Of a DNA stretch of 64,000 nucleotides, positions 898 to 54,163 are shown piece by piece. Numbering within the stretch: the first letter of the stretch is position 1; every line of letters begins with the position of its first letter. This DNA comes from Planctomycetota bacterium. GTDB lineage: Bacteria > Planctomycetota > MHYJ01 > WSZJ01. The position numbers were made by a program, and so were the translations under genes. The DNA lies in NCBI GenBank assembly GCA_009773755.1, contig WSZJ01000030.1, positions 7,955 to 71,954 of the forward strand. The letters are read 5' to 3'. The notes beneath the pieces were generated by a model, which saw only the letters and a program-made list of their open reading frames with translations, searched no databases and had not been told where the DNA came from.

Positions 898-945
898 TCA
901 GGTCGTCTCTCGAAGAGGCGACCCAGGCGCGCAGGACCGTGCTGG

Positions 946-33735: not shown

Positions 33736-34839
33736 TTACTTCGGCGCCGGAGCCTTCAATTCCTCCGGAATCGCCTCACCCCTCAACCACTTTCCAATCC
33801 CCTCGATCATCTTCTGCGTCAGCGCATGTTCTCCGTCGTACCAGTAGCTCTCCGCCTGCACGCCCGCGGCCTCGAGCGACTTCGCGAACTCGGCCTGCAT
33901 CTTCCACGTGATGACAGAGTCCTTCACGCCGTGCGAAATCAGCAGCCTTTTCCCCTTCCATTTCTCCAGGGACCCTCCCGGATTTCCGCCCCCGCTGTTG
34001 AACACCGCGCCGGCCAGCTTTTCGCCGAACGCGCTCACGCACCGCGCCGTCAGGTACGCGCCTTCCGACGACCCGACGAGGTAGATCTTTTTCGCGTCAA
34101 TCGAGAGCTTCGCCTGCACCTTCGCGATCGCCTTCTCGACCTGCTTCACCACCAGTTCCGACCCTCTCGCCGCGTCCTCGCCGCCCGCCTGCGGCGACCA
34201 CCCGTACCCCTGCGTCCCGTCCGCCGCCCCCGCCGGATACGGCGACTCCAGCGCCGCCACCACGAACTCGTCCCCCGGCCAGTCCGGCACCGACCGGATG
34301 AAATCGTCCGCGTTCGCCCCGTGACCGTGCAGCAGCAGCACCAGCCCGTACGTCTTTGCCGCGTCGTATTTCTTCGGCCGCGTCATTTCGCAGCGAAAAA
34401 GCGCTTCCGCCTCGACCCACAGCATCTCGACGTTGATCGGCTTGTTCGCGCGGTACGCCTTGAGCGCCATCTCGTACCCCTTCGTGGCCCGCAATGCCGC
34501 GAGATCTGCATCCGCTTTCACGTGCTCGAGGTCGGAATATCCCGCGAGGAATGCCCCCTGAAGCGCGTTCGCCGCCGCCGCCGTGCGCCCGGCCTTCGAC
34601 AGCGCGCACGCGAGGTTGTACCAGGCGTTCCAGTCGTCCGGCCGCCGGGTCACGTAGTCCGTGTACGCCTTCGCCGCTTCAACGAATTTCTTTTCCTTGA
34701 AGAGCCCGTCCGCGCGCGCGGTGCTCGCCGGCCGCGTCGAGTCCTTGAGCGCCTGGATGACGCGGTCGTCGAGGTCGTCGGCGGGGCAGGCGGGCGGGCG
34801 GGCGAGCAGGCAGGCAAGCAGGAGTGCGGTGGTGCGCAT
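33736..34839 (-). CDS. TPR + alpha/beta-hydrolase, paralog of 30876..31808
   Basis: ATG 34839 with a GGAG SD (34872 is GTG). Signal peptide MRTTALLLACLLARPPACPA. RRPDDWNAWYNLACAL TPR; LVLLLHGHGANADDF, YLVGSSEGAYLTA and ISHGVKDSVI are collinear with the paralog. Confidence 0.8.
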   Translation of the reverse strand: MRTTALLLACLLARPPACPADDLDDRVIQALKDSTRPASTARADGLFKEKKFVEAAKAYTDYVTRRPDDWNAWYNLACALSKAGRTAAAANALQGAFLAGYSDLEHVKADADLAALRATKGYEMALKAYRANKPINVEMLWVEAEALFRCEMTRPKKYDAAKTYGLVLLLHGHGANADDFIRSVPDWPGDEFVVAALESPYPAGAADGTQGYGWSPQAGGEDAARGSELVVKQVEKAIAKVQAKLSIDAKKIYLVGSSEGAYLTARCVSAFGEKLAGAVFNSGGGNPGGSLEKWKGKRLLISHGVKDSVITWKMQAEFAKSLEAAGVQAESYWYDGEHALTQKMIEGIGKWLRGEAIPEELKAPAPK

Positions 34840-34979
34840 GGGGGCTCCGAGAAGTGTGTTGCTCGAAGTCACTACGAAATCAAGGGAGACGTTCTTCCAG
34901 TCAGTGTAACTGCGCAGTCAGGGAGAGGGTCGTCTTCTCTTGCATACAAGTTACGATATTCGTAATCTATCAACAAATC

Positions 34980-35633
34980 ATGCAAACTCTGACAGAGAAG
35001 GTGATGAGGCTGGACCCGCCGGGGTCGCTCTTCGATGAGGCGGTCCTTCACAACCTGTTCCCCGAATCGACGTCGGGCGCGAAAAAGCTTCTCGTACATC
35101 GAAGCGTCCAGCACGGAGAAGTCGTCCGCCTGAAACCCGGGATCTACTGCCTCGCACCCGAGTATCGGAAAACCCATGCCCATCCGTTTGCCGTCGCCGC
35201 CACCCTCCATTCGCCGTCGCACATCAGCCTCGAAAGCGCGCTGGCCTGGCACGGCCTGATCCCGGAGGCCGTGGCGCAGGTCTCCAGCGTGACCGTCAGC
35301 CGCAGCCGCATCTTCGACACGCCTCTCGGGACCTTCTCCTTCCAGCGCGTCCCCTGCACTGCGCCGCGGGCCGGCGTGCGGGCGGTGAAGCTGGACGCCA
35401 GCAGCTGGGCTTTCGTCGCCATGCCGCTTCGCGCGATCGCCGACCTTGTCTATCTGCGAAAGGAAATTTCCTGGGATCGCGACGGCCTTGGATTTCTCAC
35501 GGTTTCCATGCGAATGGAAGCGGATGAACTCCGCGAACTACCCACGGAAGATTACACGCCGGTCCACAATGCCATGCGGAATCTGAGAACGAAACGCTAT
35601 CTGGAAGGACTGAAGAAGGAGATGAGCCCATGA
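34980..35633 (+). CDS. abiEi: AbiEi-family antitoxin/transcriptional regulator
   Basis: Internal ATG 34980. VRLKPGIYCLAPEY...FAVAATLHSPSHISLESALAWHGLIPEAV is the AbiEi_4 pattern. Confidence 0.75.
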   Translation: MQTLTEKVMRLDPPGSLFDEAVLHNLFPESTSGAKKLLVHRSVQHGEVVRLKPGIYCLAPEYRKTHAHPFAVAATLHSPSHISLESALAWHGLIPEAVAQVSSVTVSRSRIFDTPLGTFSFQRVPCTAPRAGVRAVKLDASSWAFVAMPLRAIADLVYLRKEISWDRDGLGFLTVSMRMEADELRELPTEDYTPVHNAMRNLRTKRYLEGLKKEMSP

Positions 35634-36502
35634 TGAAGGACATTCTCTCGGACAGACTGAAGGAGTACGCGCCGGCAAACGCCATCGAACAGGAAAACGC
35701 GCTCGCGGAAATCATGCAGCATTACGTGCTCGCGAGCCTCGCCCGCGCACGCTTCTTTGGCCGGGCGATCTTTCACGAGGGCACATGCCTGCGCATCCTG
35801 TATGGATTGCATCGCTTTTCCGAGGATCTGGATTTCGTCCTGAAGGATGCAGACCCTGCGTTTGACTGGAAATCCTGCGTGGACCGCATTCGTCATGATT
35901 GCGCGGCGGAAGGGATCCAACTGGACGTGCAGGGGCGCGCCGGGAAAGAGACCGCCGTTCGAAAGGTTTTCCTCAAAACGGATTCGATCGGGCAGATCCT
36001 CAACCTGGAGTTGCCCTACGCGAGGCATGCCACCCGGAAAATCCGCATCAAGCTGGAAATTGATACCAATCCTCCGGGAGGCGCGACCTTTGAAACGCGG
36101 TTCATCACCTTCCCGATGGCCACCGCCATCACCTGCATGGACCTGCCCTCCGGCTTCGGATCCAAATGTCATGCCCTGCTCTGCAGCGAATACGTCAAGG
36201 GCCGCGACTGGTACGACTTCCTCTGGTACGCGTCCCGGAAAGTGACGCCGAATCTCGACCTGCTGTCGCATGCCCTCGCCCAGCAGGGCCCGTGGGCCGG
36301 GCAACAGATCGCTGTCACGACAGCCTGGTTTCTCAAAACGCTGCGATCCCGAATCATGGAAATCGACTGGCGGGTCGCCGCGCAGGACGTCGCACGCTTT
36401 ATCATGACGCGCGAACAGGAGGGGCTGCGTGTGTGGTCCGCCCCGCTGTTTCTCCAGCATCTGGAAGACCTGGCCGGGAAGATGGCGGAAGCCGGGCGAT
36501 GA
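35630..36502 (+). CDS. abiEii: AbiEii/AbiGii nucleotidyltransferase toxin
   Basis: ATGA overlap with abiEi. EQENALAEIMQHYVLASL...FHEGTCLRILYGLHRFSEDLDF is the DUF1814/AbiEii pattern. Confidence 0.8.
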   Translation: MMKDILSDRLKEYAPANAIEQENALAEIMQHYVLASLARARFFGRAIFHEGTCLRILYGLHRFSEDLDFVLKDADPAFDWKSCVDRIRHDCAAEGIQLDVQGRAGKETAVRKVFLKTDSIGQILNLELPYARHATRKIRIKLEIDTNPPGGATFETRFITFPMATAITCMDLPSGFGSKCHALLCSEYVKGRDWYDFLWYASRKVTPNLDLLSHALAQQGPWAGQQIAVTTAWFLKTLRSRIMEIDWRVAAQDVARFIMTREQEGLRVWSAPLFLQHLEDLAGKMAEAGR

Positions 36503-36931: not shown

Positions 36932-37909
36932 ATGACCAAAGCGAAGGGGCACGACCCCGCAGTGTTTCCACCACCGATGGACCTGCCGAAACTCAATTCC
37001 GTCGAAGAAGTCGTGAGTCTCCTGCGGAGGGGGAATCACCGCCTCTATGTGCGACCGGCAGGTGAGATCCCCCGTTCTCCTGATCGCTGGTACGTCGCCC
37101 GAAATCCGCTGCCCTCCAGCGCGGCTGACCCACTTGTCCGAATCCATCGAACCGAGTCGGCCGCGCCCGGCGCAGAGTATCTGGGTGCCTGCTTCGATGG
37201 CATCATCCAAGGTGACGCGATCGCGGAAGTGCCTGAAAGCGTTTGCACGCAGATCGAGTCGAAACTGGACTCGGACGAGCCGATTCGGTGGCTCTCGACT
37301 CGGCCGATCGTCCGCACGTTCCTGTACCTCGACATCTCGGACTTCTCGACCTACCCTCCGGGGCAGCAGGCACTGATCGTGGCCTGTTTGCCGAAGTTTG
37401 TTAGTGAAGCTCAAAAGGGCCGCCGCGCGGAACACACTGGAACACCGCAGCAGATGATCTGCACAGGCGACGGCTACATCTTTGTCTTTCTCGATCCAGT
37501 GGCGGCAACTTGGTTCGCGGCACAGCTCGCCACGGAGATCGACTACGCCGTCGCGAAGCCTATGGGTTCAGTGGAGATTCACTACCGCATGGGAATTCAC
37601 ATCGGCGAGGTTTTCCCTTTCGAGGAAGGCGCAGAGCGAAATCGCTGGAACTTCGCTGGCGACGGTATCAACGGAGGCCGGCGGGTGCTCGACGCGATCG
37701 GAAGGAATGCGGACGACTTGGTGTTTCTGTCCGGAGACGTCGTGAAGTCGATTCATGCAAAGGCTGAGTGCTCCACGGGTTTCGGCGAGATCATGCAGTA
37801 CTTGGTGAATCGGGGACGGAGAAAGGACAAGCATAAGAAGCCTTGGCGGGTATATGAGCTGAACCACAGGGATGCCGCCTCGAACTCAAGGCAGATCAAG
37901 CCATCATAA
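36932..37909 (+). CDS. class III nucleotidyl cyclase-domain protein with unknown ~125-aa N-terminal domain
   Basis: ATG 36932 (GAGG SD). RTFLYLDISDFS (metal Asp), ICTGDGYIFVF (second Asp), YRMGIHIGEV and NFAGDGINGGRRVLD (Asn/Arg) are collinear with adenylate/guanylate cyclase catalytic motifs. Confidence 0.65.
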   Translation: MTKAKGHDPAVFPPPMDLPKLNSVEEVVSLLRRGNHRLYVRPAGEIPRSPDRWYVARNPLPSSAADPLVRIHRTESAAPGAEYLGACFDGIIQGDAIAEVPESVCTQIESKLDSDEPIRWLSTRPIVRTFLYLDISDFSTYPPGQQALIVACLPKFVSEAQKGRRAEHTGTPQQMICTGDGYIFVFLDPVAATWFAAQLATEIDYAVAKPMGSVEIHYRMGIHIGEVFPFEEGAERNRWNFAGDGINGGRRVLDAIGRNADDLVFLSGDVVKSIHAKAECSTGFGEIMQYLVNRGRRKDKHKKPWRVYELNHRDAASNSRQIKPS

Positions 37910-38550
37910 GTTCGCGATCTGCGCGGGGCGCGAGATCCTCGATGACGGCATGGAGGTTGCCTTTGACGAGGCGACAGACAGGCAGTGGTTCGTGATCGAG
38001 GGCACTTAGCACGCTCAAGCGGGGATACCGTACTGCGCAGGGAGCGGCTTGGCCGAAGCGGCGTTCGCCTTCTTCGCCGTCCACGTCTCGTGCTCATCCC
38101 GTCCAGCCCAGCTTCGCCGCGATCGGCCGCAGGTGCCGCTCGGTGAACGGGACAGAGGGTACGCGGTCCCCTCTCGGAGTTCATCGTGCTAGGGGGTCGA
38201 GACGGTTCGGAAAAGAATCTCTTCTAGTGTCGAGGAGCTTCGATTCGACGACCCTGCGAACCCCTTCGCTTCTCAACAACCTGGCCGAGCGCCAAACAGC
38301 CCGGCGAAGGGATCGTCGGAACTGGAGACCCAGGGCGAAACCAGCCTGTGATTTGAATCCAAGGGATGGGCGCATCAGCCGAAAGAGTTCAAGGATATAA
38401 CCCCACGCCGACTGTTCCAAGACTGAGCCTTGAGCCTGAGACCCGCCTGCTGCCGCCCCGGAGTACCGGCGAGTAATTGCAACGCCTGCGATCGTCGCCA
38501 ATTTGGGGGCGCGCGCCCGCGTTGATCGGGCGTCCCCGCGAGATTCCACT

Positions 38551-41430
38551 CTACACGCTTCTCGCCTTCGAAAGCAGTTCCTCCATGGTGGCGAGATCAC
38601 GTTTCACTACGACCTCCGGCTTGATGAGCTTCATTGCATTGCCTGCGACCTCGACCTCTTCACTGCTCCATTCTTTTGGCAGGGCTCCGACCCAAGAAGA
38701 GCTGATAGGTCCCACGAGAATCCTGGGAATCGCCGATCTTCGGTCGTTCGACGCGGTCTCCGCAAGTCGCTTTGTTTGCTTCGCCGAAGCACTGTTCTTG
38801 ACAGAGATCAACTGGCCAAGCGGCCCAGATCCCACTTTGTCATGTGTAATTCCAAAATATGGGCGCCAAGGCGTGACAGGCTCCGGCTGCAGTAGCAGCG
38901 AATGTTCGTCACCGATTGTTAATCCCCAAGACGCCCCTCGTATCGCATCCACGCCTCGCTGATAGACCCCAAGACTCTTGTCGCCAGCATCCTCAACAAT
39001 CGGAGCCAGACGCCCTCCGAAGACTCGGGACCAATTTAGCAAAGCGTGAATCCCCCTCCTATGCCAGAGAGGTGCTGTGTCGGGAGGAACTCCGGAGGAT
39101 CCCGCCAGATCTACATAACTTAGGTACGCCTCAAGACTTTCGCCGGAGGCGAGTCGAACCCTGTCGGCCTCATAAACCTCTGCGACCTGATCCGCGCCAA
39201 GCAGGGCAGCGGCCCACAATTCAAGCCTTCTCAGCAGTTTCTTGATCGCTTCATGGGTGGTAGCTGATCCAACAGAATCCGCTTCTGGAACCATTAGAAG
39301 GGCGAGCGACTCAACATCCCTTGTGGCAACTCGATCTACACCTAATGCCGTGGTCGCATATGTGGCGACATCCGCGTACCACTTCCATGCACGCAGCAAC
39401 AGACCATCGGGACGTACCCGCCGCACCAGACTCTGGCGCAGATCTTCGTTGTAGGATCCAGTCCGGCTCGACAAGGCGCCATCGATCTCGGGTTGGATTT
39501 CCTCTGACTTGCCCAGGATTTCGACTTTTGCACGCAACCCTGCCAGCGACGCCAAGGCATCGTCCGGCGAACGCGTCGCCCGGGCATCAGGAAAGATAGA
39601 ATCAGTTCGTACCTGTTTCGGATTTGCCTCTAGGTAGGCCTCCAACCCTGAAAGCGCCTCCGAGACGTTTTCGCAAAGGTCGCTCAATCCTCCGTCATTA
39701 GTGCCATGGAGACTCACGTACAGAAGGCGCTGCAGAGTTGTGAACTTCGAGGATGACGAGTGGCAACTGTTCATGATCACTTCCATAGGTGCGATGAAAG
39801 GGGCTAGTCGAGATTCGCGCTGAATTGAGCGCCTAAGACTATCGAATCCCGGTTTCAATACGTACTCTTTCTTGACGGTGTCATACGCATAAAGCTCACT
39901 GAATATTGTTGGAAGGGGCTGTGGCCTACCATTGACATTTGCGCTGGCAAGACGCCCGAATGTGTAGTGGCCAGCATTGGCATGCTCAATTTGCATTCCA
40001 AAATTATGCTGCAGAATAGCAACGGTCTTCTCTATCGTGCCTCGAGAAGCCACGCCTCCCATCATGTGCGTTGCAAAAGCAATTATCATCTCAATCAGGT
40101 GCCGCTCTTTTCTTGCGTTCTCCCCGATCTCTGTCAATCGAAGCGCGCGAGCATGGTCTTCTCTATAAAAGGCGGTCGCTTGAACATAGTCGCACAGTGC
40201 ATCAACTGCAGCATGAATTTCTAGAGGCGACGAGCCCTCCGGAGGGCATTGCAACAGTTCGGAGATTGTTTCGCCGTGGGATTCCCACTTTCTCACATCA
40301 AGGCAGTGGCGATTATGTTCCAAGTACGAGGAATTAAGTCGATCCCGAATCTTCACCATCGTTTCCAAGTAGTCAATCGAGCGACTGTTGTCTTCAATTG
40401 CTCGTTCCATGACTTGCGAGTGAGGATTTCTCAGGTGTTGCAAGATCGCAGGCATTAGGTCTTTGGCAATCGCATTCCCATAGTACCTGATCAGGGGGGT
40501 TGTGTTCGGAGTGACCCGTTCGCGAAGGTTCCTCGGTGAGAAGACATCGGTATTCAAGTACCGGGCCGCCAGTTCAACTCTCAGGCCAAGACTATTCGCA
40601 TCGAAAACGTCCCTCAATCTCGCCCCTGGACCTGAGGTTCCCGATCGAATCATGTCAGCGTAGCCAGCCGCCAGTGCAAATGCTGAGTCCGGCGTTCTCT
40701 TTCGATGATTCGCAAACGCCATCGGCACTAACCTGAGGGTTCCTGAAGATGGCGAATACCAAAGGCGAATTTTGGGAGGAACATCAAAGCTAGGTGGATT
40801 GTCCAGTCTGAATAGAACGCTCGCCGTCAAATGGTCGCCTCGCTTGCCGTAATCAAGGACGTTTCCAAAGCGTGCCGAGGACCGAAGCAACTCCAACCAG
40901 GAATCGTTTGATACTGATTCCGCTTCAAGCACAACTTGATTTGGTCCTGACGGATAGTAGTGATCCAAGCAAATGTCCTGTAACGACCGAAAGAAACGTG
41001 CGTATTCTTCTGGTGACGATACTTCGTAACCGATCTTGACATCGGGTGGCGGGGCAGATAGCGCGGGCCTGCCTGATCGCGGCAATCTTGTAAACAGCAG
41101 GGCATACTTATCAATTGTAGAAAAAGGTCGGCTGCGTAGGTCATTGTAGATCCGTCGTTGAACGCCACCAGCAAAGAGCGTATCGTCAATTAGTGCGGCG
41201 CGCTTGCCGATTAACTGTGAATCGGGAACAAAATCGAATGCCCTCGGGAGCATGATTGTTGGGTTCCGCGCCAAAAGGGGCGGCGCGTTGCGCTTGAGGA
41301 TCTCAAGTGTACGGTCGAGAAGAACTGTGCCCTTGCCCGGCACTGGAATGAGGTAGTCATAGTTCTGGAGGAGAGCGTTTCTTGCGAGGAAGTCGGCCAA
41401 GATGCCAAGTAGTTCTGTCATTCCCTTCAT
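38551..41430 (-). CDS. 959-aa protein: N-terminal phosphoribosyltransferase-like domain, long helical middle, possible palm-like C-terminus
   Basis: YLIPVPGKGTVLL... and KRAALIDDTLFAGGV resemble the PRTase PRPP-binding loop (acidic pair then T-x-G-x-T-like). C-terminal YVDLAGSSG...EDAGDKSLGVY...FGITHDKV is weakly cyclase/GGDEF-palm-like. Low GC. Confidence 0.6.
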   Translation of the reverse strand: MKGMTELLGILADFLARNALLQNYDYLIPVPGKGTVLLDRTLEILKRNAPPLLARNPTIMLPRAFDFVPDSQLIGKRAALIDDTLFAGGVQRRIYNDLRSRPFSTIDKYALLFTRLPRSGRPALSAPPPDVKIGYEVSSPEEYARFFRSLQDICLDHYYPSGPNQVVLEAESVSNDSWLELLRSSARFGNVLDYGKRGDHLTASVLFRLDNPPSFDVPPKIRLWYSPSSGTLRLVPMAFANHRKRTPDSAFALAAGYADMIRSGTSGPGARLRDVFDANSLGLRVELAARYLNTDVFSPRNLRERVTPNTTPLIRYYGNAIAKDLMPAILQHLRNPHSQVMERAIEDNSRSIDYLETMVKIRDRLNSSYLEHNRHCLDVRKWESHGETISELLQCPPEGSSPLEIHAAVDALCDYVQATAFYREDHARALRLTEIGENARKERHLIEMIIAFATHMMGGVASRGTIEKTVAILQHNFGMQIEHANAGHYTFGRLASANVNGRPQPLPTIFSELYAYDTVKKEYVLKPGFDSLRRSIQRESRLAPFIAPMEVIMNSCHSSSSKFTTLQRLLYVSLHGTNDGGLSDLCENVSEALSGLEAYLEANPKQVRTDSIFPDARATRSPDDALASLAGLRAKVEILGKSEEIQPEIDGALSSRTGSYNEDLRQSLVRRVRPDGLLLRAWKWYADVATYATTALGVDRVATRDVESLALLMVPEADSVGSATTHEAIKKLLRRLELWAAALLGADQVAEVYEADRVRLASGESLEAYLSYVDLAGSSGVPPDTAPLWHRRGIHALLNWSRVFGGRLAPIVEDAGDKSLGVYQRGVDAIRGASWGLTIGDEHSLLLQPEPVTPWRPYFGITHDKVGSGPLGQLISVKNSASAKQTKRLAETASNDRRSAIPRILVGPISSSWVGALPKEWSSEEVEVAGNAMKLIKPEVVVKRDLATMEELLSKARSV

Positions 41431-41714
41431 GAAGTGTTCCTGAGCTATTATATGATGTGTGAGTACCCGTCAGTACTGAATTGATTCTTGACGCTCTTTG
41501 GACTCCCACCAAGGGAGTCAGAGATTTCTACCTCATGCGTGGCACCGAATCAAGTGAAACCAGCTTCCGTCGTCGGGAGTGTGGCAACATTTTCATAAAC
41601 CGCGGGTCGTGGAGATGTAAGGTACCAAGACCTTCTTCATCGTCGTGATTTGCGGAGCTCGAGGGCAGGCGGGCTTCGTATCTGAGCCTTGCTTTTGCAA
41701 GGTGGGAGACACTG

Positions 41715-44591
41715 ATGGGCATGAACCGTGGGTCCGAGTGGGCGCGTTGGGATGTGCACCTTCATACCCCCGGGACCGCACTCAACGATCAGTTTCCTGC
41801 AGACTCTATGGACCAGTTCATCGACAAAGTGAACGGCGCTTCTCCCTCCGTGATCGCCTTGGGCGTGACCGATTACCTGTCGGTGGAAAACTACGCCATC
41901 GTCCGCGCTCGGTGGGAAAAGGGGGAGATGCCCAACGTCCTCCTCCTGTTTGCGAACGTGGAGCTTCGGCTCTCGATTCAGACCGAGAAGCCTCAGCCGC
42001 TGAACCTACACATCCTCGTCTCACCCGACGACCCCGAGCACCTTCAGAAAATCAGGGCAAAGCTGGGTCTCCTGACCTTCGACTACAAGAAGGAGCCCTA
42101 CCAGTGCACGCCCGAGGACTTGGCTAGACTTGGGGCGGTCTGTTGTCCTGAGATCCAGGACAAGAACCTCCGGCTCTCGGCAGGTGTGAATGCGTTCAAG
42201 CCCGATTTCGGCAAAGTTCGCACTTGGTTTGAGGGTGACAAGTGGTTGAAGGACAACTGCCTCGTCGCCGTTGACGGTGGAAAGAACGCCGGCGCAAGCG
42301 GACTTCAGGGAGACGGGGGCATGGTTTCAGTGAGAAAGGAGATTCAGCGGTTTTCGGACATCGTTTTTTCTGGAAATCCCAAGGATCGCGAATTTTGGCT
42401 CGCGCAGAATCCTGAATTCAGAGAGGAGGTTCTGAGGGAGTACCGCAGACCAAAGCCTTGTCTTCACGGATCGGATGCGCACCGTCTCGAAGAGGTGCTG
42501 GAACCGAAGGAAGAGCGGCGCTGCTGGATACGGGCCCGCCCCACGTTTGACGGTCTCAGGCAAGTCTTGTTCGAGCCCGGAGAGCGCGTCTGGCTTGGTT
42601 CCGAGCCGCCTACGCGGCCGCGGAACAACTGGGTGCGAGGCTGTGGGATTCGTGACGCCGAATGGTCCAAGACTCCAGATGTGCCACTGAATGCGGGCCT
42701 GGTCGCGATCATCGGCCCGAGGGGATCGGGGAAGACGGCACTCGCCGACCTAATCGCGCACGGCGCAGACTCATTCGTGTCGGGAGGATCGTCCTTCCTA
42801 GACAAGGCGATAGACTTCATGGGCGGAGCCAAGGTCGACCTGACTTGGGCCGGAGATCCGGAGAATCCCACTCGGCGAGTCGTCGGAGAAGGAGTGCAGG
42901 ACTCCCCTGGAGCCAGGTACCTTTCCCAGCATTTCGTTGACCAACTGTGCTCCCCGCAGGGACCGACTGATGGACTGGTTGATGAGCTCGAGCGAGTGAT
43001 ATTCGACGCGACCGAGGAAACTCAACGACTCCGGGCATCGTCGTTCGCGCAACTTCGAGAAGCAGTCACCCAGGGCAGCGCAGCACGAGTTGAGGCGCAC
43101 CGGATCGAGATCACCAAGTGCAACACTGAGATCGCGAAAGAAATCGCGTCGAAGGAACGCTTGGCACCCTGCGAGCTGCGACTCGTGAAGTTGCAAGAGA
43201 CTGCGACTGAACTTGCGAATACCGCTTCGAAATTGGTCGTGAAAGGGAAGGAAGCGAAAGTCGAACAGCTTCGACAACTACGAGAATCCACCGCCCTGAT
43301 CGAGGAGAAGATCGCGCAGCTTCTTGCGATCGATCAGCAGATCCAGGACGTCGCTGGCGAACTCGCAACTCTGCGACAGTACATGGAAGATCAGTACGCC
43401 TACATGTCGGCTCGGCTGACTTCGATGGGACTTTCTGCCGTCGACGTGGAGTTTTTCCGACTCCGATTCACAGGAGATGTGGACTCGGTACTCCAGCGAC
43501 GCAGGGAGCAAATCGTCGGAGAAATTGAACGTCGCAAGACTGGGCCAGATGGTGGAGGCCAGCAAGTAGGCCTGCAGAAAATGAAGGAGCAGCTGGCAGC
43601 CCTTCAGAAGGAGGTGTCCGGAGACCTCGCACGTGAGCATCAGTTAGTCGAGATTCAGAAACGCGAGAAACTCACGCGACAGGAGAGAGAGAAGGTCTCG
43701 GCAGAAATTGTCGTCATCAAGTCCGCCAGCGAGAGAATCCGCGTCGCGAGCAAGCGGCGCATGGATCGTTATCTGCAAGTCTTTGACGAGATCCGAGGTC
43801 AGAAGTCGGCGATGGAGCGACTGTATGCCCCGGTCACCGACCGTCTGCGCAATGGGCCTCTCGAACGCCGGAAACTTGAGTTCTACGTTCGAACCGAAGT
43901 CAACACGCCTGCTTGGGCTGCGCGTGGAGAGGCTCTGATTGACCTGCGGAGAGCCTCGCCGTTCCAAACTCCAGGCAGTCTCCTTCTCAGTGCTAGACGG
44001 TCGCTCGAAAAGCCGTGGAGGGAGGGCGATCGAACAAGCATCGAGAAGGGCCTTCAGGAGATGTATCAGGCATTCAGCGAGGGAAAACAGATGCTTGTGA
44101 AGGAAGCCACCTTGGCCAGTCTAGCGGAATGGCTGTTCTCGACGGATCATGTGCGCATTTCGTACGGCATCCGTTTCGAAGGAACGGAGATCGAAAAGCT
44201 GTCTTCAGGCACTCGAGGGATCGTGCTCCTCATGCTCTACCTCGGGCTAGACGACCAGGACGATCGGCCACTTCTCATCGACCAGCCAGAGGAAAACCTG
44301 GATCCTCAGTCGGTATTCGAGGTACTCACGGAGTACTTTAAGCTCGTGAGGAAACGGCGACAGGTCATCTTGGTCACCCACAACGCCAATCTCGTCGTGA
44401 ACACCGACGCGGATCAGGTCATCATCGCCAGCGGTGTGCGAGACCAACTTGGAAGTTTACCATCGATCCGGTACGAGGCGGGAGCGTTGGAGGATTCTGA
44501 GATTCGGGCAAGGGTCTGCCAGATCCTCGAAGGCGGCGCCGAAGCATTCCTCCAGCGAGAACGGAGGTACGGCTTGCAACGACTTCTCTAG
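41715..44591 (+). CDS. PHP-domain + ABC/OLD-type ATPase protein (Ppl-like single-gene defence architecture)
   Basis: N-terminal WDVHLHTPGT...GVTDY...ANVELR (PHP metal ligands). Walker A GPRGSGKTALADLI, a long coiled-coil insertion, signature-like LSSGTRG, Walker B LLIDQPEENLDP and VTHNANLVVNTDADQVI. Confidence 0.7.
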   Translation: MGMNRGSEWARWDVHLHTPGTALNDQFPADSMDQFIDKVNGASPSVIALGVTDYLSVENYAIVRARWEKGEMPNVLLLFANVELRLSIQTEKPQPLNLHILVSPDDPEHLQKIRAKLGLLTFDYKKEPYQCTPEDLARLGAVCCPEIQDKNLRLSAGVNAFKPDFGKVRTWFEGDKWLKDNCLVAVDGGKNAGASGLQGDGGMVSVRKEIQRFSDIVFSGNPKDREFWLAQNPEFREEVLREYRRPKPCLHGSDAHRLEEVLEPKEERRCWIRARPTFDGLRQVLFEPGERVWLGSEPPTRPRNNWVRGCGIRDAEWSKTPDVPLNAGLVAIIGPRGSGKTALADLIAHGADSFVSGGSSFLDKAIDFMGGAKVDLTWAGDPENPTRRVVGEGVQDSPGARYLSQHFVDQLCSPQGPTDGLVDELERVIFDATEETQRLRASSFAQLREAVTQGSAARVEAHRIEITKCNTEIAKEIASKERLAPCELRLVKLQETATELANTASKLVVKGKEAKVEQLRQLRESTALIEEKIAQLLAIDQQIQDVAGELATLRQYMEDQYAYMSARLTSMGLSAVDVEFFRLRFTGDVDSVLQRRREQIVGEIERRKTGPDGGGQQVGLQKMKEQLAALQKEVSGDLAREHQLVEIQKREKLTRQEREKVSAEIVVIKSASERIRVASKRRMDRYLQVFDEIRGQKSAMERLYAPVTDRLRNGPLERRKLEFYVRTEVNTPAWAARGEALIDLRRASPFQTPGSLLLSARRSLEKPWREGDRTSIEKGLQEMYQAFSEGKQMLVKEATLASLAEWLFSTDHVRISYGIRFEGTEIEKLSSGTRGIVLLMLYLGLDDQDDRPLLIDQPEENLDPQSVFEVLTEYFKLVRKRRQVILVTHNANLVVNTDADQVIIASGVRDQLGSLPSIRYEAGALEDSEIRARVCQILEGGAEAFLQRERRYGLQRLL

Positions 44592-44659
44592 GAGGGTGCG
44601 AGGTCGGCAATCGTCGCGAGCCGTCCTCGTCTGTTGGGACGAGAGGGCAATCGCGGCAA

Positions 44660-46132
44660 TCAAGGAGTTTTCCTGCTGGCGACGAATCGGCGGACCGCTC
44701 GGATGGCTGAGAGAGCCTCCTCTCGACCGATGGCAGCTTTGGATCTCATCTCAACCTTGGCGTGAACATGATTTCGGAATTGCCGAAGGCTGTCGGAAAC
44801 ATAGACGTTTCCAGGTGAAAGCAAGCCTGCCTCTTCGCATCGGTCAATCATCGAATCGAACGTCCAGGCGAGCGCTTCCTTCGAGTCCTTTCCTGCGGCC
44901 GCTTTGCACTTGCTCTGCACCTTGGGCCAGTTGGCTTGAAGCATGTCGACGAGGAGCGCCTCGATCATTCCGCCAGCACAAACAATCGACATCTTCCAAG
45001 CACCAGCAAGGTAGCACGCGATCACCTCACGATAGTCGCGCTCCAGGAGCTTCCGCATCTCTGGCGACGCCACTATCGAGCCGAAGTCGGGTAATTGAAA
45101 ACACTCCGGCTCGATCCGCTTCTCGATCGCCAGCGCCAGTCCTTCCATGAAATCTCGGAGAACTGCGCTTGACTTCGCTCCCAGGATGCCGGCGGTCCCC
45201 GAGAGTGAGTGCTGTTCAGCGGCAGCATCGTAGAGTTGGCGTACTTCCCGAAGCAATGTCGGGGCTTCGGAGACGCCGCGTTCCAGGAATTCCTCCACGA
45301 TCTCAGCATGTCGGATGGATGCGAGGCAACTGGCGAGAGCCCCGCCGTACTGGAGAGCGCGCGGCTTCCAGTCCGGCATCTGGTGTGTGTTGTTCGAGAT
45401 GAGATCTACGGCGTTTTTCAGGTGAGGGAGCGCTTCCTTGAGAAAGGCGGAAGCGGAAGCTGTGTTGAGTACTCGCAGTTCAAGTTGACCTCGCAGGTAT
45501 GGCGCCAGCGCGACAGCGAACTCGAAGCGGCTCTCGTACAGTGGAGCGAACTCCGTCCATCTGGGAAGCGATCGAAGCGCCTCCAACGCCCTCGTCGCGT
45601 CAGCCAAGGACATTCTGCAGTCGTCAAACCGCGCGAGGAGTGCGAAATGCATCGTTTCATTCACTGCCGCCTCGAGCAGCGATTCGGCTGCGATTGCTTC
45701 GAACCGCTCCCGTTCCTCGACGAAGGTAGTGCCGAGGAGGGAGAACCGGTGAGCGGCTTCTCGGAATGAACCACCCGCCTCTTCGAAGTCGAGATCTCCC
45801 GCTTCCTCGTAGCCTTGGCAGTACTTCTGATAAGCGCGCACGCGACGGAGGTTCCCCTGATCACTTGCTAACTCGAACTCTTTTGCGCTCCTGGCGAGGA
45901 TGCCACGCGTTTCTTCCCACGATCCAGTCGTCTTCAGGATGGCAAGTGCATGGCAGAAGACCGCGCATGCGAACGCTCTACGGGAATTGGCCTGCCATGA
46001 GGTCCTCACCATCTGTTTCGAGAGCTGCTCGTAGAGCTTGCTTGCGAGCTCGAAGTCGAAACTCTGGCGCGCGGCTTCGGCGCGCCGGTACTTTTCGGCG
46101 CCATCAGCGGAGAGATTCAACGGTCCGAGCAT
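44660..46132 (-). CDS. helical (TPR-like) protein with C-terminal DUF4145/HEPN-like domain
   Basis: ATG 46132 with GAGGCGAG upstream (GTG 46180 is possible). The C-terminus reads DYREVIACYLAGAWKMSIVCAGGMIEALLVDML...MIDRCEEAGLLSP...LRQFRNHVHAK, i.e. an R-x4-H motif in the DUF4145-type helix arrangement. Confidence 0.55.
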   Translation of the reverse strand: MLGPLNLSADGAEKYRRAEAARQSFDFELASKLYEQLSKQMVRTSWQANSRRAFACAVFCHALAILKTTGSWEETRGILARSAKEFELASDQGNLRRVRAYQKYCQGYEEAGDLDFEEAGGSFREAAHRFSLLGTTFVEERERFEAIAAESLLEAAVNETMHFALLARFDDCRMSLADATRALEALRSLPRWTEFAPLYESRFEFAVALAPYLRGQLELRVLNTASASAFLKEALPHLKNAVDLISNNTHQMPDWKPRALQYGGALASCLASIRHAEIVEEFLERGVSEAPTLLREVRQLYDAAAEQHSLSGTAGILGAKSSAVLRDFMEGLALAIEKRIEPECFQLPDFGSIVASPEMRKLLERDYREVIACYLAGAWKMSIVCAGGMIEALLVDMLQANWPKVQSKCKAAAGKDSKEALAWTFDSMIDRCEEAGLLSPGNVYVSDSLRQFRNHVHAKVEMRSKAAIGREEALSAIRAVRRFVASRKTP

Positions 46133-46487
46133 GTAGACTCGCCTCGATCGAGGGGTGTTCGACCTTGATCGCCGTCCCACACATAAGGTTCACAATCATA
46201 CAGAGGTACTTCAACTCTGCCGTGGAGAGTTCAGTTGTCTGAAACACCGTTCCTTGCCTGAGCCCAAGAGCCGCGAGAGCTGCGCCTCCAGGAACCAAGC
46301 GGGGGCGGGATCGTTGTCGAGAGAGAAGCGCGCCGGTTCCGGATCGCGTTCGGAAAAAGGCGGACGGCTTTGAGTCCACACCCGGTAGGGCGAGCCGGTC
46401 TGAATTCGGACTAGGACGATGCTGGGCGCCACAGGAACTCAGCGCATGTCCTACTCACGCAGGAGTGATTGCATTCTGACCGGGCTT

Positions 46488-48794
46488 TCATTCCCGGCAC
46501 GCCCAAGGATCGCCGTAGAAACAGTACGCCGCGTAGGTGTCTTGGAGTGGGTTCTTCTCGTCGTACGCGCGGGCTCGAATCCCCCGGAGAATTTCTGCGA
46601 ATGGCAGCGCGGGATTCTTAAGCGCCTCCTCGTAGAACTCTTTCGCAATGAGATGGGCAATATCGTCCTCCACGCTCCAGAGTGCCGCGATCACCCCACC
46701 GGCCCGCTGCTTGACGAGTGCCTGGACGAGGCCTCCCACGCCGCTCAGCGCCGGAGCCGGCCGCCCTACCTCGCAGGCGTTGAGCACCACCAACGTCGGC
46801 GCTCTGGAAAACGCAGATCTGAACTCTGGGCAGCCCCTCACCTTGGTCGATGTCAGCGTCTGCAATTGTTCCAGGTCCAGACTCTGTCCGCCCGCCGCCG
46901 ATCCGTGGCCGACAAAATGAACCAGGTTGCACTTGCTCTCGGTCAACGACTTTGTAATGGACTCCATCTCCGCCGGATTGGCCTGCCGGCCAGGTACTTT
47001 TCCGAGCACGAAGACGGCCTCTTCCTTCGATGTTGGAAGATCCCGCGTGTCCCCGTAACTCGGAGCGATCACGAGGCTCCGGTCAATTGCAAACCGTTGA
47101 GGGCCGGAGGTGTTGTCGGCCGGCACCCATCGGCCGATCACGAACTCTACGCCGAGCGGCTGCCGCTCCTGGTCCCCACGATTCGGGATCATTAGCTCCC
47201 AGGGAATGAAGGGCTCATCGGTAACGATTGCGATCGTCCGGGGGAGCTTGTTCGCATCGACCAGTTGCCAGAACAACTTACGGAATTGCTTGGGCGAAGC
47301 ATCAAATAAATTTAGACCAGCGCCCCTAAGCTCGCCGAGCCTGCCCGCGGCGTCGTTGTTCGGATCCACGAACTGCTTCATGTAATCGCGGACGATCCGC
47401 TCTGCTCTGCCCTTTAGCTTCCATGTGTGGCACTTGTTCAGCAGGTTTGACTTGATCAACGAAGTCCGCAGAAAGCAGCAAAAATCGGTCTCCTCGCCCT
47501 CCGGAACCGCATGGATCTGCACGATCAGGTCGGCAGGTTTCGCCGTCGGATCTACTGCAATAGTCCCCGGAAGGGGTGACGGAGGCACCTCCTTCCCCTG
47601 ACTGGAACTGATAGCGATCGGGACGGTGATCCGAACCTCCCCCGCTGGCCTTCCCCGATGAAGGAACAGCACCGAAATCCCGCCATGATCGACGCGCGTT
47701 GGATCCGGAAAGCGGTTTCGAAGTTCGGCCTCGCACCGGACCCGCACCCGGAAATCGATTCGCTCCGTCCGCTCTCGGGACACTTCCATTGGGAACGGTT
47801 GGCTGTGGTCTCCGACTGGCTCGAAGTGATCACTGACTAACAGTTCCGCTACCAGGTCGATCCGCTTGATTCCCGGAGGCACCTCGACGTCGATCGGAGT
47901 GACATCCTCGCCCTTCCGCGCGGGCTTTGTGTCGGCCCAGATTGTGAGCGTGAATTCCATCGCGGGTTTCACAGGCGCCTTGGGTGAGAGTTCGACGTGC
48001 GGAGTCCGGTGGATGGTGCGCGGGACCACCGGCCGACGAGGGGTTCCTTCAACCGGTTGCGTTCGCCTCGGCAAGAAGGGCCTTGGTTTGGCTGAATGCG
48101 GAGGGAGATCTTGACCCCGCTGCAAGGGCTGGAAGTCGACAAAGGCTTCAAGCCCCGCATCGTCCCACTGCTCCGATAACTTGCGCAATGCCTCCTGGAG
48201 CGGACCCACAACCGGGGCTTCGAGCTGTGACTTGTAGTCCGCCCAAGCTTCAAATAATTCGCTTTGCCCTGTCAGTAGGCTCAAGTCCCCTCGCAAGATT
48301 GCCGCCCCCGAAACTGGCGCTTGCAATTTGAAGAGTTGTCCGGCCGTGGCTTCCAACACTCTGGTGATCTTCCTCCCTGAAGCCGGTTCGTCCCCGCGAT
48401 CCTTCAAGGCAAGTGCTTCGATGAGACCACGGTCGGTTTCGACGCTCCCCATTACCACCTCATGCGGCTCGACGATGCGCGCCATTGTAGGGGACTTCAG
48501 TCCGAAATACAGATGCAGGTCCTTCTGCCTCCGTGCAAGGAGCCAGCGGAGTTGCATCAATCGGCCTGCATCCACCCGGCCCAGCTTGGCATTTTTTTCC
48601 AACGCCTCGAGGACCCTGATCCTGGAACGCAAGTCAAGCTCCCAGAGCGTGCCGAGTGCGGCGCGGATCGGCTTCGCGATTGGGTTGCCAACTCTATGGA
48701 AGGAGCTCAAGAGGGATCGGGCTTGGAATACACGGCCGCTGGCCACGAGCTGCGCCGCCTTGATCACGTCAGTTCGCTGAGGATTGGGAGGCAT
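46488..48794 (-). CDS. CHAT-domain (caspase-like) protease with long N-terminal helical and beta-rich regions
   Basis: Start ATG 48794, 4 nt after the hydrolase stop. The C-terminal CHAT pattern has catalytic His in LVHFVGHGS and Cys in LVVLNACEVG, ending ...YCFYGDPW. Confidence 0.8.
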   Translation of the reverse strand: MPPNPQRTDVIKAAQLVASGRVFQARSLLSSFHRVGNPIAKPIRAALGTLWELDLRSRIRVLEALEKNAKLGRVDAGRLMQLRWLLARRQKDLHLYFGLKSPTMARIVEPHEVVMGSVETDRGLIEALALKDRGDEPASGRKITRVLEATAGQLFKLQAPVSGAAILRGDLSLLTGQSELFEAWADYKSQLEAPVVGPLQEALRKLSEQWDDAGLEAFVDFQPLQRGQDLPPHSAKPRPFLPRRTQPVEGTPRRPVVPRTIHRTPHVELSPKAPVKPAMEFTLTIWADTKPARKGEDVTPIDVEVPPGIKRIDLVAELLVSDHFEPVGDHSQPFPMEVSRERTERIDFRVRVRCEAELRNRFPDPTRVDHGGISVLFLHRGRPAGEVRITVPIAISSSQGKEVPPSPLPGTIAVDPTAKPADLIVQIHAVPEGEETDFCCFLRTSLIKSNLLNKCHTWKLKGRAERIVRDYMKQFVDPNNDAAGRLGELRGAGLNLFDASPKQFRKLFWQLVDANKLPRTIAIVTDEPFIPWELMIPNRGDQERQPLGVEFVIGRWVPADNTSGPQRFAIDRSLVIAPSYGDTRDLPTSKEEAVFVLGKVPGRQANPAEMESITKSLTESKCNLVHFVGHGSAAGGQSLDLEQLQTLTSTKVRGCPEFRSAFSRAPTLVVLNACEVGRPAPALSGVGGLVQALVKQRAGGVIAALWSVEDDIAHLIAKEFYEEALKNPALPFAEILRGIRARAYDEKNPLQDTYAAYCFYGDPWACRE

Positions 48795-48798
48795 CGGG

Positions 48799-50064
48799 CT
48801 AGCGCAGCATCTTTCGGATGAAGCTGAGAGTCTCTGGCTGCTCAAAGTAGTTGGTGTGATGCACACGATCGGTACTCTTGAAATCGAAGATCTGGTCGTC
48901 GCCGAGCCTCGCCGTATCCGCAAGCTCAATCATCGACTCGCTGTCGACCACCAGGTCGTTTTCGCCGTCGAAGACGAAACTGGCAGCGAGATCCTTCAAT
49001 CGACCGCCAGGTCGCCGGAAGTACCTCCAGAACTTCCACCCTGGCTTTTCGCTTTCGAAATTGGAGCGCACCGCGAAGTAGCGGCTCCGCCACTCGACAG
49101 CCGCGCTTCGAAGGCTCAACAGCTCAGAAGCGTTGCCCACACGGCTCTGCGCCGCCATCCCAGGGAGGAGAGCGATGGCAGCATCGATGGCCGGAGTTTT
49201 TGAGGCGATCTTTGTAACGGACGAAATTATGCGGAACACTCCGGTGAGGACTGTCAGAAATGGAAGGCCAGCGCTGGCCGCACCTAGGACGTTCGCGATG
49301 TTGGAGAGGAGGCTCAGGCTGTGTTTGATGTTGGGTGGAGAAGCGAGCCCGGTGCCGGCCAATGGCGAACCCACGAACACTGCTCTCCGCCGGTTGGCGG
49401 GCCCCCTGTCGAACGCCTCGAGCCACCAGCGGGCGACAAGTCCGCCGCGACTGTGGCAGACGACATCCACCGCGGCCTTCGACTCCCGGAAGTGAAGTGC
49501 GAGTGCCCGAGCATTCAGCATCGGGCTCACCGACAGAGTGGGATGATCGAATGTTATCACCTGATCGTATCGGGTGTTCATCCAATCGAGGAATGATCTC
49601 CCCTCTGGATTCTTTGCGATCCCGGCCAGGATGTTCTCGGTGTTGGAGAATGTGCCGTGGACGAGGAGTAAGATCCTTCCTTCATCGGATGGCCTGTGGT
49701 CCTTGGTCGACTCAAGGTTCCCGTCTTGCCAGCGACGAAGTCCCTGGTTCGGAGTGAGCTTCCTGTCGAGCGACTCGAGCCAATCGGTGACCTGTGAATG
49801 ATCGAGCTTCGCCAGCACTCGTTCCCACACGAGGATTCCTGGAGAAGAAATACCCTGCGCACCGCGGCGCCGAGGACCAGTCGGGACGAACTGCGGAGAG
49901 TCGTCCACTTGAAGGACCCCGTCGTGCTCCACGATCCTCATGGTGAGGGCTCCTTCACTTGCGATGGGCCTGACCGCTCCTCTGCGGCGGGCCGGCTTGG
50001 GGCACGCGCCCAGCTCCTGGGTCAGCTTGTCTAACGCGGCTGACAACGTATCCCCTCCGTTCAT
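48799..50064 (-). CDS. lipase-like alpha/beta hydrolase with ~140-aa N-terminal extension
   Basis: AAGGAGG SD. ILLLVHGTFSN (oxyanion region), VVCHSRGGLVA (nucleophile elbow), FDGENDLVVD and RVHHTNYF (Asp/His candidates). Confidence 0.7.
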   Translation of the reverse strand: MNGGDTLSAALDKLTQELGACPKPARRRGAVRPIASEGALTMRIVEHDGVLQVDDSPQFVPTGPRRRGAQGISSPGILVWERVLAKLDHSQVTDWLESLDRKLTPNQGLRRWQDGNLESTKDHRPSDEGRILLLVHGTFSNTENILAGIAKNPEGRSFLDWMNTRYDQVITFDHPTLSVSPMLNARALALHFRESKAAVDVVCHSRGGLVARWWLEAFDRGPANRRRAVFVGSPLAGTGLASPPNIKHSLSLLSNIANVLGAASAGLPFLTVLTGVFRIISSVTKIASKTPAIDAAIALLPGMAAQSRVGNASELLSLRSAAVEWRSRYFAVRSNFESEKPGWKFWRYFRRPGGRLKDLAASFVFDGENDLVVDSESMIELADTARLGDDQIFDFKSTDRVHHTNYFEQPETLSFIRKMLR

Positions 50065-50156
50065 CGTACTACCTCCTTAACTCTGCTCCGGAGAGTGCTT
50101 CGGGGCCCAAGATCCCATCGAAAGGAGAGGCTCGGATTCTCCCCATGAGGGATGGG

Positions 50157-51374: not shown

Positions 51375-51568
51375 CGAATCACCTCCGAATCCAATTCCGT
51401 TAGCGTTCCTCGGGCGTCACGCGAGCGACATTGACAATTAGAGTAGAGTATCTCTGGAAGTCTGCTGCAGAAGACTCATTAGTGTTCTTGAGCATCGCCT
51501 CGATAATTCCGAGGTGATGGAGAGATGACACTTTCATCATCATAAATCTGTGCAGCGACTACCTGGGT

Positions 51569-53260: not shown

Positions 53261-54163
53261 GGCACTCTCCTCAATTGGAAATCCGGATCACACGTCGGGG
53301 TTCCCACGTCAGCAAGTCAAAACGGCTCAACCCCTCATCGGCAGTTACTTGAATCTAAGAGACTGATTGCTGATCTCATCAGCCCCCACCTCACCGGACA
53401 CGGCAAATGACTTAACCAACTCTCTTCGGACATCGCCTTTGAGGAATTGCTGGGACTCTCCGTTGGGCGTCTTACTTGACGTGATCTGAGTCGAGGCCTT
53501 GTGGTGGACTGGTAACCAGCTGGTCCTTTGCCGCCGGACGACCGCACAACTCGAGTTGCCAGGTAGATGCTTCGTGTTGGATCTCTCTCAGCGCCACGGA
53601 CGCTGATTTCTGCAGAACGACATCCGCTTCACGAGGGTTTGGAAGGGACGCCCTCGCCGCGAGTTGAGAGGGGTTCTGTTGTGGCACCTGGATTGAGCGC
53701 GGCACCAAGACCAGGTTCGATCCAAGGGAGCAAGTAGCCCCATTTCGCCGACCTCATCTCCACCCCTCCTGACACAACCAGCCAGAAACCTGCGACTCCC
53801 TCCCGGGGAATGTGGCAGAATTTACCGGTCCTGGGCGCGTGTGGTCAAGAGAAATGCACCCCCCATGATGAGAAAAAATGAAACCGGAGTTCAGTCTTGT
53901 ATCAAACTGATGCTTCGTGAGCTGACGGTGGTCGCCGTGCCGGGAACACTCCGGTCGACTTCCTGTCTCCCACGGGCTACACGCGGGATGTGATCATCCG
54001 TCACGACAAGAACGAGCGACGTTGCAGAGATCGAAGGGGAAGATGGACGCGATTCGAGAGAGCTGCCGCAGGTGCAGTCGCTGTCCGAGCGATCCCGTTC
54101 GCTCCGTACACAGCTGAGCCTTCGCACTCTTCAGCTTTGCAGTAGAGCGACCTATCGGGAGTT

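Follow-up and report, generated by a model that had tools for sequence, protein, structure and literature searches.

A 959-residue phosphoribosyltransferase-headed protein from a planctomycetal low-GC island: candidate single-chain form of a two-component, nucleotide-centric conflict module

Introduction

What might a protein do that begins like a phosphoribosyltransferase (PRTase), ends with a faint likeness to nucleotidyl cyclases and runs to 959 aa in a bacterial defence island? The gene that raises this question lies at 38551..41430 on the minus strand of a 64,000-nucleotide stretch of Planctomycetota bacterium contig WSZJ01000030.1 (assembly GCA_009773755.1); this whole stretch is referred to below as the window, and positions are counted within it. 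The protein (P0001), searched whole and as N- and C-terminal pieces, has no match in Pfam, PADLOC, NCBIfam or the PDB sequences, and a PRTase-cyclase architecture turned up nowhere in text searches of the literature. An earlier note, made from the letters of the window, had proposed a PRTase head, a largely helical middle and a C-terminal palm of the nucleotidyl-cyclase/GGDEF kind, and had taken the adjacent cyclase-domain gene for a possible functional partner. The comparisons of sequences and of a predicted structure presented here lead us to favour, with a probability of roughly one half, the reading that the protein is the single-chain version of a rare, undescribed two-component module of nucleotide-centric conflict, probably directed against phage.

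A two-gene module in a single chain

The open reading frame (ORF) runs from ATG to stop over exactly 38551..41430 (minus strand), as given by the ORF list and translation, and its GC content by codon position (0.60/0.46/0.55) is of the coding type, with flat values for the small ORFs downstream. An identical 959-aa protein is encoded, with the same neighbours, on 3–4 independent metagenome contigs. Because the same protein recurs on these contigs and has 44 distant homologues down to E=2e-31, the ORF is a real coding gene and a chance ORF is excluded. Its position and length had been given correctly in the earlier note, and every motif quoted there was located in the translation: YLIPVPGKG at residues 26–34, AALIDDTLFAGGV at 78–90, YVDLAGSSG at 772–780, EDAGDKSLGVY at 813–823, FGITHDKV at 859–866 and KNSAS at 878–882.

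A word-index homologue search returned the 959-aa protein itself only, an alignment-mode search added one irrelevant match, and tblastn of a plasmid collection gave no match. Exhaustive phmmer comparison with 1.84 billion cluster representatives recovered 44 relatives (E 2e-31 to 2e-4, 23–39% identity), of which ~16 are full-length proteins of 950–986 aa that align with the whole query and ~20 are short forms of ~440 aa that align with residues 1–440 only. Members of the family are only 20–50% identical to one another, the window protein being an outlier whose nearest relative is ~27–31% identical. A pattern scan for the short form found two loci in 185,579 species genomes, both in Aminicenantes metagenome-assembled genomes (MAGs), and four in a metagenome collection.

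The short forms explain the size of the long ones. In every short-form locus with downstream sequence (L013, L014, L015, L016, L018, L019 and L020) the ~440-aa gene, here A, is followed by a second gene, B, of 520–563 aa. The two overlap by 20 nt in L013 and are separated by 6–19 nt in L014, L015, L016, L018 and L019; the L020 contig ends after 248 aa of B. A hidden Markov model of the C-terminal half of the fused forms matches the B proteins of L013 (E=4e-16) and L014 (E=3e-13), the B protein of L016 matches the window protein directly over residues ~566–856 (tblastn, E=4e-11), and the lengths of A (438–446 aa) and B (520–563 aa) add up to the ~950–990 aa of the fused forms. Judged by these matches, the 959-aa protein is a fusion of a conserved two-gene module, A+B. 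Rosetta-stone logic suggests that A and B act as one unit, since every split locus has them side by side with hardly any spacing and the window protein joins them in one chain. Neither the fusion nor the recurrence elsewhere in the family of PycTM or other small membrane partners, absent here, had been noticed in the earlier note.

The PRTase head and the remainder of module A

By its predicted structure the N-terminal head, residues 1–160 (40951..41430; this and all further features of the gene are on the minus strand), is a type-I PRTase fold, as the earlier note had proposed and as PF00156 matches in relatives, Foldseek and the short-form profile bear out. Pfam PF00156 (Pribosyltran) matches 35 of the 45 family members, with a best E value of 2.9e-9; the same model gave no match to the window protein itself even at E<=10, and its membership of PF00156 would be by transitive homology. 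An AlphaFold2 model built with the 45-sequence family alignment as its multiple sequence alignment has a mean predicted local distance difference test score (pLDDT) of 82.5 and a predicted template modelling score of 0.73, the single-sequence model (pLDDT 37) being useless. Every one of the AlphaFold model's top 50 Foldseek matches among PDB structures is a type-I PRTase (HGPRT, PyrR), with probability 1.00 and ~140 aligned columns, and a search of BFVD returned viral PRTases. When the short-form profile was compared with PDB sequences, PRPP (phosphoribosyl pyrophosphate) synthetase, PyrR, APRT, amidophosphoribosyltransferase and, weakly, ShosT chains were found, always through the PRPP-loop region. 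PADLOC models for defence PRTases also match relatives weakly: ShosT eight members, PsyrT five (E>=1.3e-4 for both) and the retron III-A PRTase seven.

The family consensus of the head reads DYxVPxExKG ... RAFDF ... AxxDDTVFTGRT. In the window protein its first element is YLIPVPGKG (residues 26–34, 41329..41355), a beta-strand followed by a K33-G34 loop, equivalent to the pyrophosphate loop, in which K33 and G34 are invariant in the family. The predicted PRPP-binding loop, AALIDDTLFAGGV (residues 78–90, 41161..41199), keeps D82, D83 and G88, and PSGPNQ (residues 160–165, 40936..40953) is a degenerate form of a P-x-x-x-D-H motif that is invariant as RPSxPDH in the short forms.

The rest of module A, residues 161–441 (40108..40950), ends where the ~440-aa short forms end and has no database match. 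Its secondary structure in the model is beta-rich at ~160–245 and helical at 247–372, followed at 389–441 by a helix-helix-hairpin unit that ends in an R428/R431/T433/E434 motif; going only by topology, this unit near the end of the module may be winged-helix-like.

Module B and its probable cyclase-like palm

Module B opens with residues 442–755 (39166..40107), delimited by homology to the separate B proteins of the split loci. The segment has no database match and is modelled as an alpha/beta unit (445–540) and a helical bundle (543–755). The largely helical middle described in the earlier note therefore holds for residues 247–372 and 543–755, but not for the beta-rich ~160–245 or the alpha/beta 445–540 regions of the AlphaFold model.

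The protein probably ends, over its last ~190 aa, in a divergent palm domain of the class III cyclase-like kind (residues 756–940, 38611..39165), an assignment of moderate confidence, transitive for the window protein, that draws on profile-profile alignment with hhalign, a profile match to PDB entry 3mr7 and the topology of the model. A collinear series of motifs runs through the domain: aYDL/I-x-G ... NW-x-I-x-F-G-G ... GD-x-x-x-x-F ... A-x-x-A-x-W ... G-x-x-I-x-x-G, then a conserved helix. Four class III cyclase domains from PDB alignments served as hhalign templates (Cya2 2w01, CyaB 3r5g, AC9 C1 and AC9 C2). Split-form B domains aligned to them with Prob 50 and P=1.6e-4 over 98 columns, and all forms together with P=4e-4; the fused forms alone gave P=0.15, which is not significant. 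Reversed cyclases gave P=0.61 (split forms) and 0.42 (all forms), the reversed controls as a whole ranging over 0.4–0.8, and module A against class III cyclases gave P=0.66. GGDEF, the only member of the GGDEF/Cas10/mCpol branch compared, gave P=0.45 and 0.1 for split and all forms, respectively. With profiles this small the test is conservative, since true cyclases against GGDEF reach only P=0.18.

In the split-form alignment, the cyclase F-x-D-I-x-G-F-T aspartate pairs with YD-I/L, the hairpin GD with the family's GD, and the G-i-h-t-G strand with AGiGeG. The split-form domain profile found one match at E<=10 among 177,635 PDB sequences, the adenylate/guanylate cyclase 3mr7 (E=0.095), in this same register, and the profile of full-length B found 3mr7 again; the profile of the fused-form C-terminal domain gave noise only against PDB and Pfam. 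Modelled residues 765–936 follow the order b1-a-b2-b3-a-b4-a-b-b-b, which fits a palm; D774 closes strand b1, and the turn from b2 to b3 holds G816-D817. These are the two candidate metal-binding aspartates: D774 (codon 39109..39111), at the end of the YVDL strand, aligns to the Asp of F-x-D-I-x-G-F-T and is invariant in all fused and split forms, and D817 (codon 38980..38982), in the beta2-beta3 hairpin, aligns to the cyclase GD, a dipeptide found in 88% of fused and in all split forms. Beyond them, an Asn is invariant in the split forms, which carry His, Ala or Lys at the fourth position after it; the fused forms show H-x-L-K-G-K, in which one Lys (K887 in the window protein) is invariant, and the register here is uncertain. 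The motifs quoted in the earlier note do align, in order, to class III cyclases, but its GGDEF alternative found no support in the profile comparisons and no curated model recognises the domain. A palm of the GGDEF/mCpol type is not supported by the GGDEF values above, and there is no Pfam mCpol match.

Residues kept and lost in the window copy

The window protein keeps 56 of the 82 columns that are conserved at >=75% among its relatives. Retained are K33, G34, R63, D82, D83 and G88 in the PRTase, R428, R431, T433 and E434 at the end of module A, and Y772, D774, W800, G816, D817, W835 and K887 in the palm. Replaced are E31 (97% conserved) by Pro, D164 (97%) by Asn, H165 (92%) by Gln and T90 by Val. 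The TGxT element of the PRPP loop reads AGGV, DDTLFAGGV standing for the family's DDTVFTGRT, with both threonines replaced. The D-to-N and H-to-Q replacements are isosteric changes that would seem typical of a decayed catalytic site. With E31, D164, H165 and two PRPP-loop threonines lost, the window PRTase may still bind PRPP or nucleotide yet no longer catalyse the normal reaction. Among family members the window copy is divergent, and it is probably not the best choice for experiments.

Membrane partners and the downstream gap

In the fused locus L006 the next gene encodes a 178-aa protein related to Pfam PycTM (PF18967; E=1.6e-4, 22.5 bits, below the 27.2-bit gathering score), and in the split locus L013 the gene after B encodes a 159-aa PycTM (E=3.4e-11). 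The two proteins are mutually homologous (E~6e-14), and because one fused and one split member carry homologous PycTM proteins, the association spans the deepest split of the family. Unrelated small proteins with multiple transmembrane (TM) helices lie downstream in L007 and L009. The gene at 6598..7458 in L008, upstream of the fused member, encodes a 286-aa protein that starts with two TM helices and faintly resembles SLATT_1 (E=0.064); the L008 locus belongs to a 5.6-Mb genome and is near an integrase, insertion sequence (IS) elements and a DruA gene. No membrane gene is found at L010, L011, L012, L014, L015, L016 or L018, nor in the window. This being the commonest arrangement, the A+B core should be self-sufficient.

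The position of the membrane effector in some relatives corresponds in the window to a 640-bp gap downstream of the 959-aa gene (37910..38550), which holds no credible gene. Its ORFs show neither coding periodicity nor hydrophobic helices, the 139-aa and 62-aa ORFs placed there by gene callers look spurious, and the TM partners of relatives leave no tblastn trace. No terminator was recognised in the gap, and there is no Rfam match at E<=1 in 36500–42000. Two candidates for this stretch were rejected. Taking the 139-aa ORF (38181..38600) for an operon partner is at odds with its high Arg content and its lack of both coding periodicity and a TM helix, and its apparent parallel in L004 is guaA; a retron or non-coding RNA was dismissed on the absence of an Rfam match and a terminator.

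Genomic setting

The 959-aa gene sits in a low-GC island between an AbiE pair and a Ppl-like TrlF ATPase gene. Its own GC content is 0.533 against a window background of ~0.65, and the 40–42 kb bin is the lowest of the window (0.527), in keeping with the low GC reported in the earlier note. That note's gene order and defence-island setting likewise stand: the gene is convergent with a 325-aa cyclase-like gene (36932..37909, plus strand) and divergent, across a 284-bp spacer, from a 958-aa TrlF/Ppl-like gene (41715..44591, plus strand), defence genes flank it and mobile or defence genes lie beside most relatives. The product of the divergent gene belongs, at full length, to the TrlF family of AAA-like ATPases (NCBIfam NF045780, 564 bits, cut-off 350; PADLOC Ppl, 6e-27) and is related, on these profile matches, to the anti-phage protein Ppl. 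A complete AbiEi/AbiEii pair (34824..36502, plus strand; 4-nt gene overlap; PADLOC E=3e-48 and 3e-88) of the type IV toxin-antitoxin/abortive-infection kind lies on the other side.

Among relatives, the neighbours include integrases, IS66 and Y1 transposases, DruA, an RHS toxin, SymE/RadC, HipA, a DUF927 primase, bacHORMA, DUF4365 and AbiE-like genes, and the family is found mostly in mobile or defence islands. In L004 a separate 221-aa Pribosyltran gene (459..1124) precedes the fused giant by ~430 bp, and the 3' end of the giant is overlapped by guaA.

The adjacent 325-aa gene had been considered a functional partner, a proposal that we reject. The gene has no Pfam, PADLOC or PDB match and aligns by hhalign to class III cyclases (P=4e-4, 117 columns; control 0.87). 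It forms a family of its own, with 24 homologous clusters (25 with itself), several of them named "class 3 adenylate cyclase" by the Joint Genome Institute (JGI), and the named MAGs are Planctomycetota. A 51%-identical relative (L021, 8001..8960) stands alone in another defence island, with a type III restriction-modification system, a UvrD helicase, Mrr and HNH genes and no PRTase giant, and the 325-aa gene is absent from all 16 loci of PRTase-family relatives. It is a separate gene of the island, and may be an uncharacterised single-gene defence candidate.

The low-GC stretch extends over ~38000..54000 (GC 0.53–0.60 versus 0.65). A tRNA-Val gene (56396..56467, minus strand) lies just past its far end, a position suggestive of a genomic island associated with the tRNA; within the window no integrase was found. 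A minus-strand run of genes at 44660..53260 within the stretch encodes an uncharacterised 490-aa protein, a CHAT-domain protease (768–813 aa), a DUF7379 protein (421 aa) and further uncharacterised proteins of 405 and 563 aa; none has a PADLOC match, and the run may be a CHAT-based conflict system. Adjoining the tRNA-Val, a 521-aa gene (54164..55729) encodes a PAS-HisKA-HATPase-receiver hybrid kinase.

Discussion

If the 959-aa protein is a single-chain two-component conflict module, component A would comprise the type-I PRTase, a beta-rich and helical region and a small winged-helix-like unit, and component B an alpha/beta and helical region ending in the divergent class III nucleotidyl-cyclase-like palm. 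The helical and winged-helix parts would keep the enzyme inactive as long as no infection is sensed; once it is, the palm, which retains both metal aspartates, would produce a nucleotide signal. Where a membrane partner is present, it would be the effector of killing or growth arrest, as in Pycsar; where there is none, as in the window, the PRTase head itself would be the effector on the PRPP or nucleotide pool, as is the PRTase toxin ShosT. Both the nucleotide signal of the palm and its output, through a membrane partner or through the action of the PRTase on the PRPP/nucleotide pool, are inferred. A more far-reaching version would make the family a new class of defence in which the PRTase and the class III-type cyclase are obligately coupled in their chemistry and PycTM-type pores are optional add-on effectors: in one scheme PRPP and a base would be joined by the PRTase into an unusual nucleotide that the cyclase then turns into a non-canonical second messenger; in another, the PRTase would be activated directly by the product of the cyclase and deplete PRPP or purines. 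We offer this version as speculation, and consider it quite unlikely.

Several observations weigh against the two-component signalling module. The link to cyclases consists of comparisons of small profiles at P~1e-4 and one marginal PDB match, and for the window protein it is transitive, given the P=0.15 of the fused forms alone. Pfam (PF00211, Guanylate_cyc), NCBIfam and PADLOC have no match for the window protein, 17 C-terminal domains or six B proteins, the Foldseek list of the whole model is filled by PRTases and gives no readout on residues 756–940, and the transition-state Asn/Arg pair of cyclases (N-x-x-x-R on the helix after beta4) is not clearly retained in the fused forms. A membrane partner is found in ~5 of 16 loci, and PycTM proper in two; at 159–178 aa these PycTM proteins seemingly have no room for a cyclic-nucleotide-binding domain, which makes the readout of a signal hard to place. 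The window copy, without a membrane partner and with three near-invariant residues lost, may be inactive, and two relatives lie amid housekeeping genes (L011 between uvrC and tdk, L004 beside guaA).

One alternative is a Pycsar-like system, in which the giant is only a sensor-cyclase, the downstream membrane protein its obligatory effector and the PRTase head a regulatory sensor of PRPP or nucleotide, the window copy being orphaned and probably a non-functional remnant. The homologous PycTM genes after one fused (L006) and one split (L013) member, the small TM proteins beside L007, L008 and L009 and the two metal aspartates of the palm point this way, as do, for an orphaned window copy, the loss of E31, D164, H165 and the TGxT threonines and the empty 640-bp gap at the partner position. 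An obligatory membrane effector is, however, difficult to reconcile with an A+B unit that most commonly stands without one (L010, L011, L012, L014, L015, L016, L018 and the window), the PRTase signature (KG, DD, G, DH) is nearly invariant in the family and fits an enzyme better than a mere sensor, and the window ORF is intact over 959 codons and identical on several contigs; we regard such a system as unlikely. Alternatively, the protein could be a PRTase toxin of the ShosT kind whose long tail inhibits it or serves as a scaffold; the palm-like domain would then produce no nucleotide signal, and B would act as an antitoxin in cis or trans, or as a phage sensor. No residues of the domain are more conserved, however, than the cyclase-aligned aspartates (D774 invariant, GD ~90%), which is unexpected if its role is purely structural, the palm match is specific to class III cyclases over GGDEF and the controls, and the recurring PycTM partner fits signalling. 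While no DprA-like antitoxin or reverse transcriptase lies nearby, the translationally coupled A-B pairs do resemble toxin-antitoxin pairs, no curated cyclase model finds the C-terminal domain, relatives weakly match ShosT, PsyrT and retron III-A PRTases in PADLOC, and characterised defence PRTases are toxins checked by a partner (10.1101/2025.09.30.679545; PMC12961424; PMC11961720). On balance a toxin of this kind strikes us as rather unlikely.

A role outside defence, as a nucleotide-salvage or regulatory protein that combines a PyrR-like PRTase with a DNA- or RNA-binding unit and lies on the island by chance, seems highly improbable. PyrR is among the structural and sequence matches, two short forms are annotated as orotate phosphoribosyltransferase by JGI, and the surroundings of L011 (between uvrC and thymidine kinase) and of L004 (beside guaA and another PRTase gene) would suit it. 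The family is, however, sparse and patchy (45 clusters among 1.84 billion representatives, two loci in 185,579 species genomes, 20–50% identity), integrases, transposases, toxins or defence genes border most of its loci, the window gene itself is in a low-GC island, and housekeeping PRTases, at ~180–230 aa, are without such extensions.

Type III retrons, ShosTA, PsyrTA and Ophion all employ defence PRTases as effectors (10.1101/2025.09.30.679545), and toxicity of ShosT requires PRPP binding and disrupts purine metabolism (PMC12961424, PMC11961720). Like ShosTA and PsyrTA, the A+B family has a defence-type PRTase as its likely toxic or effector part and a second protein that presumably restrains it. 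In A+B, however, this partner is a helical protein ending in a cyclase-like palm, as opposed to a DprA-like antitoxin, and the PRTase is N-terminal, whereas in the solved ShosT chains (432 aa) the PRPP-loop-like match is at ~324–364 (E~0.9). The window protein has no match to the PADLOC models of ShosT or PsyrT, and no locus has a DprA-like neighbour. Type III-A retrons share a PRTase effector domain, to whose PADLOC model (PRTase_III-A) seven A+B relatives match weakly, but the architecture of A+B is entirely different; near the 959-aa gene there is no reverse transcriptase among the neighbours, no msr/msd-type RNA and no Rfam match. In Ophion, a radical SAM-PHP-PRTase system, the PRTase OpnC is required for defence, and a Ppl-like gene adjoins the window gene, but no radical-SAM gene accompanies it. 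The Ppl-like TrlF gene is divergently transcribed and absent from the loci of relatives, and so gives no sign of joint action with the 959-aa gene.

Pycsar pairs a class III-type cyclase with PycTM or PycTIR (PMC11224242, PMC13069673). Its cyclase, PycC, is a pyrimidine cyclase, the products made upon infection being cCMP or cUMP. The A+B family resembles it in a class III cyclase-like palm with both metal aspartates, in the PycTM (PF18967) genes directly downstream in two relatives and in its defence islands, and an abortive-infection logic is plausible for both. Unlike in Pycsar, the palm is the tail of a ~520–560-aa B protein whose gene is in every case coupled or fused to that of a PRTase-containing A, most A+B loci, the window included, are without a membrane or TIR effector, and the PycTM partners that do occur are short (159–178 aa) with no evident cyclic-nucleotide-binding domain; no PycTM or PycTIR gene was found in the window, nor any PADLOC cyclase match for the family or the B proteins. 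Panoptes, which combines an mCpol palm cyclase with a 2TM effector, is likewise a small palm nucleotide cyclase paired with a membrane effector, but A+B has no Pfam mCpol match and favours class III over GGDEF, and Panoptes has no PRTase. The 959-aa protein is, on these comparisons, not a member of Pycsar, ShosTA/PsyrTA or the type III retrons, and current annotation pipelines miss its family, Pfam, NCBIfam and PADLOC all being blind to A+B. If functional, the module would represent a new wiring of nucleotide metabolism to nucleotide signalling and a compact one- or two-gene system for studying the control of PRTase toxins. Defence PRTases (ShosT, PsyrT, retron III effectors, Ophion OpnC) and cyclase signalling (Pycsar, CBASS, Panoptes) have been separate research themes, and here they appear physically joined.

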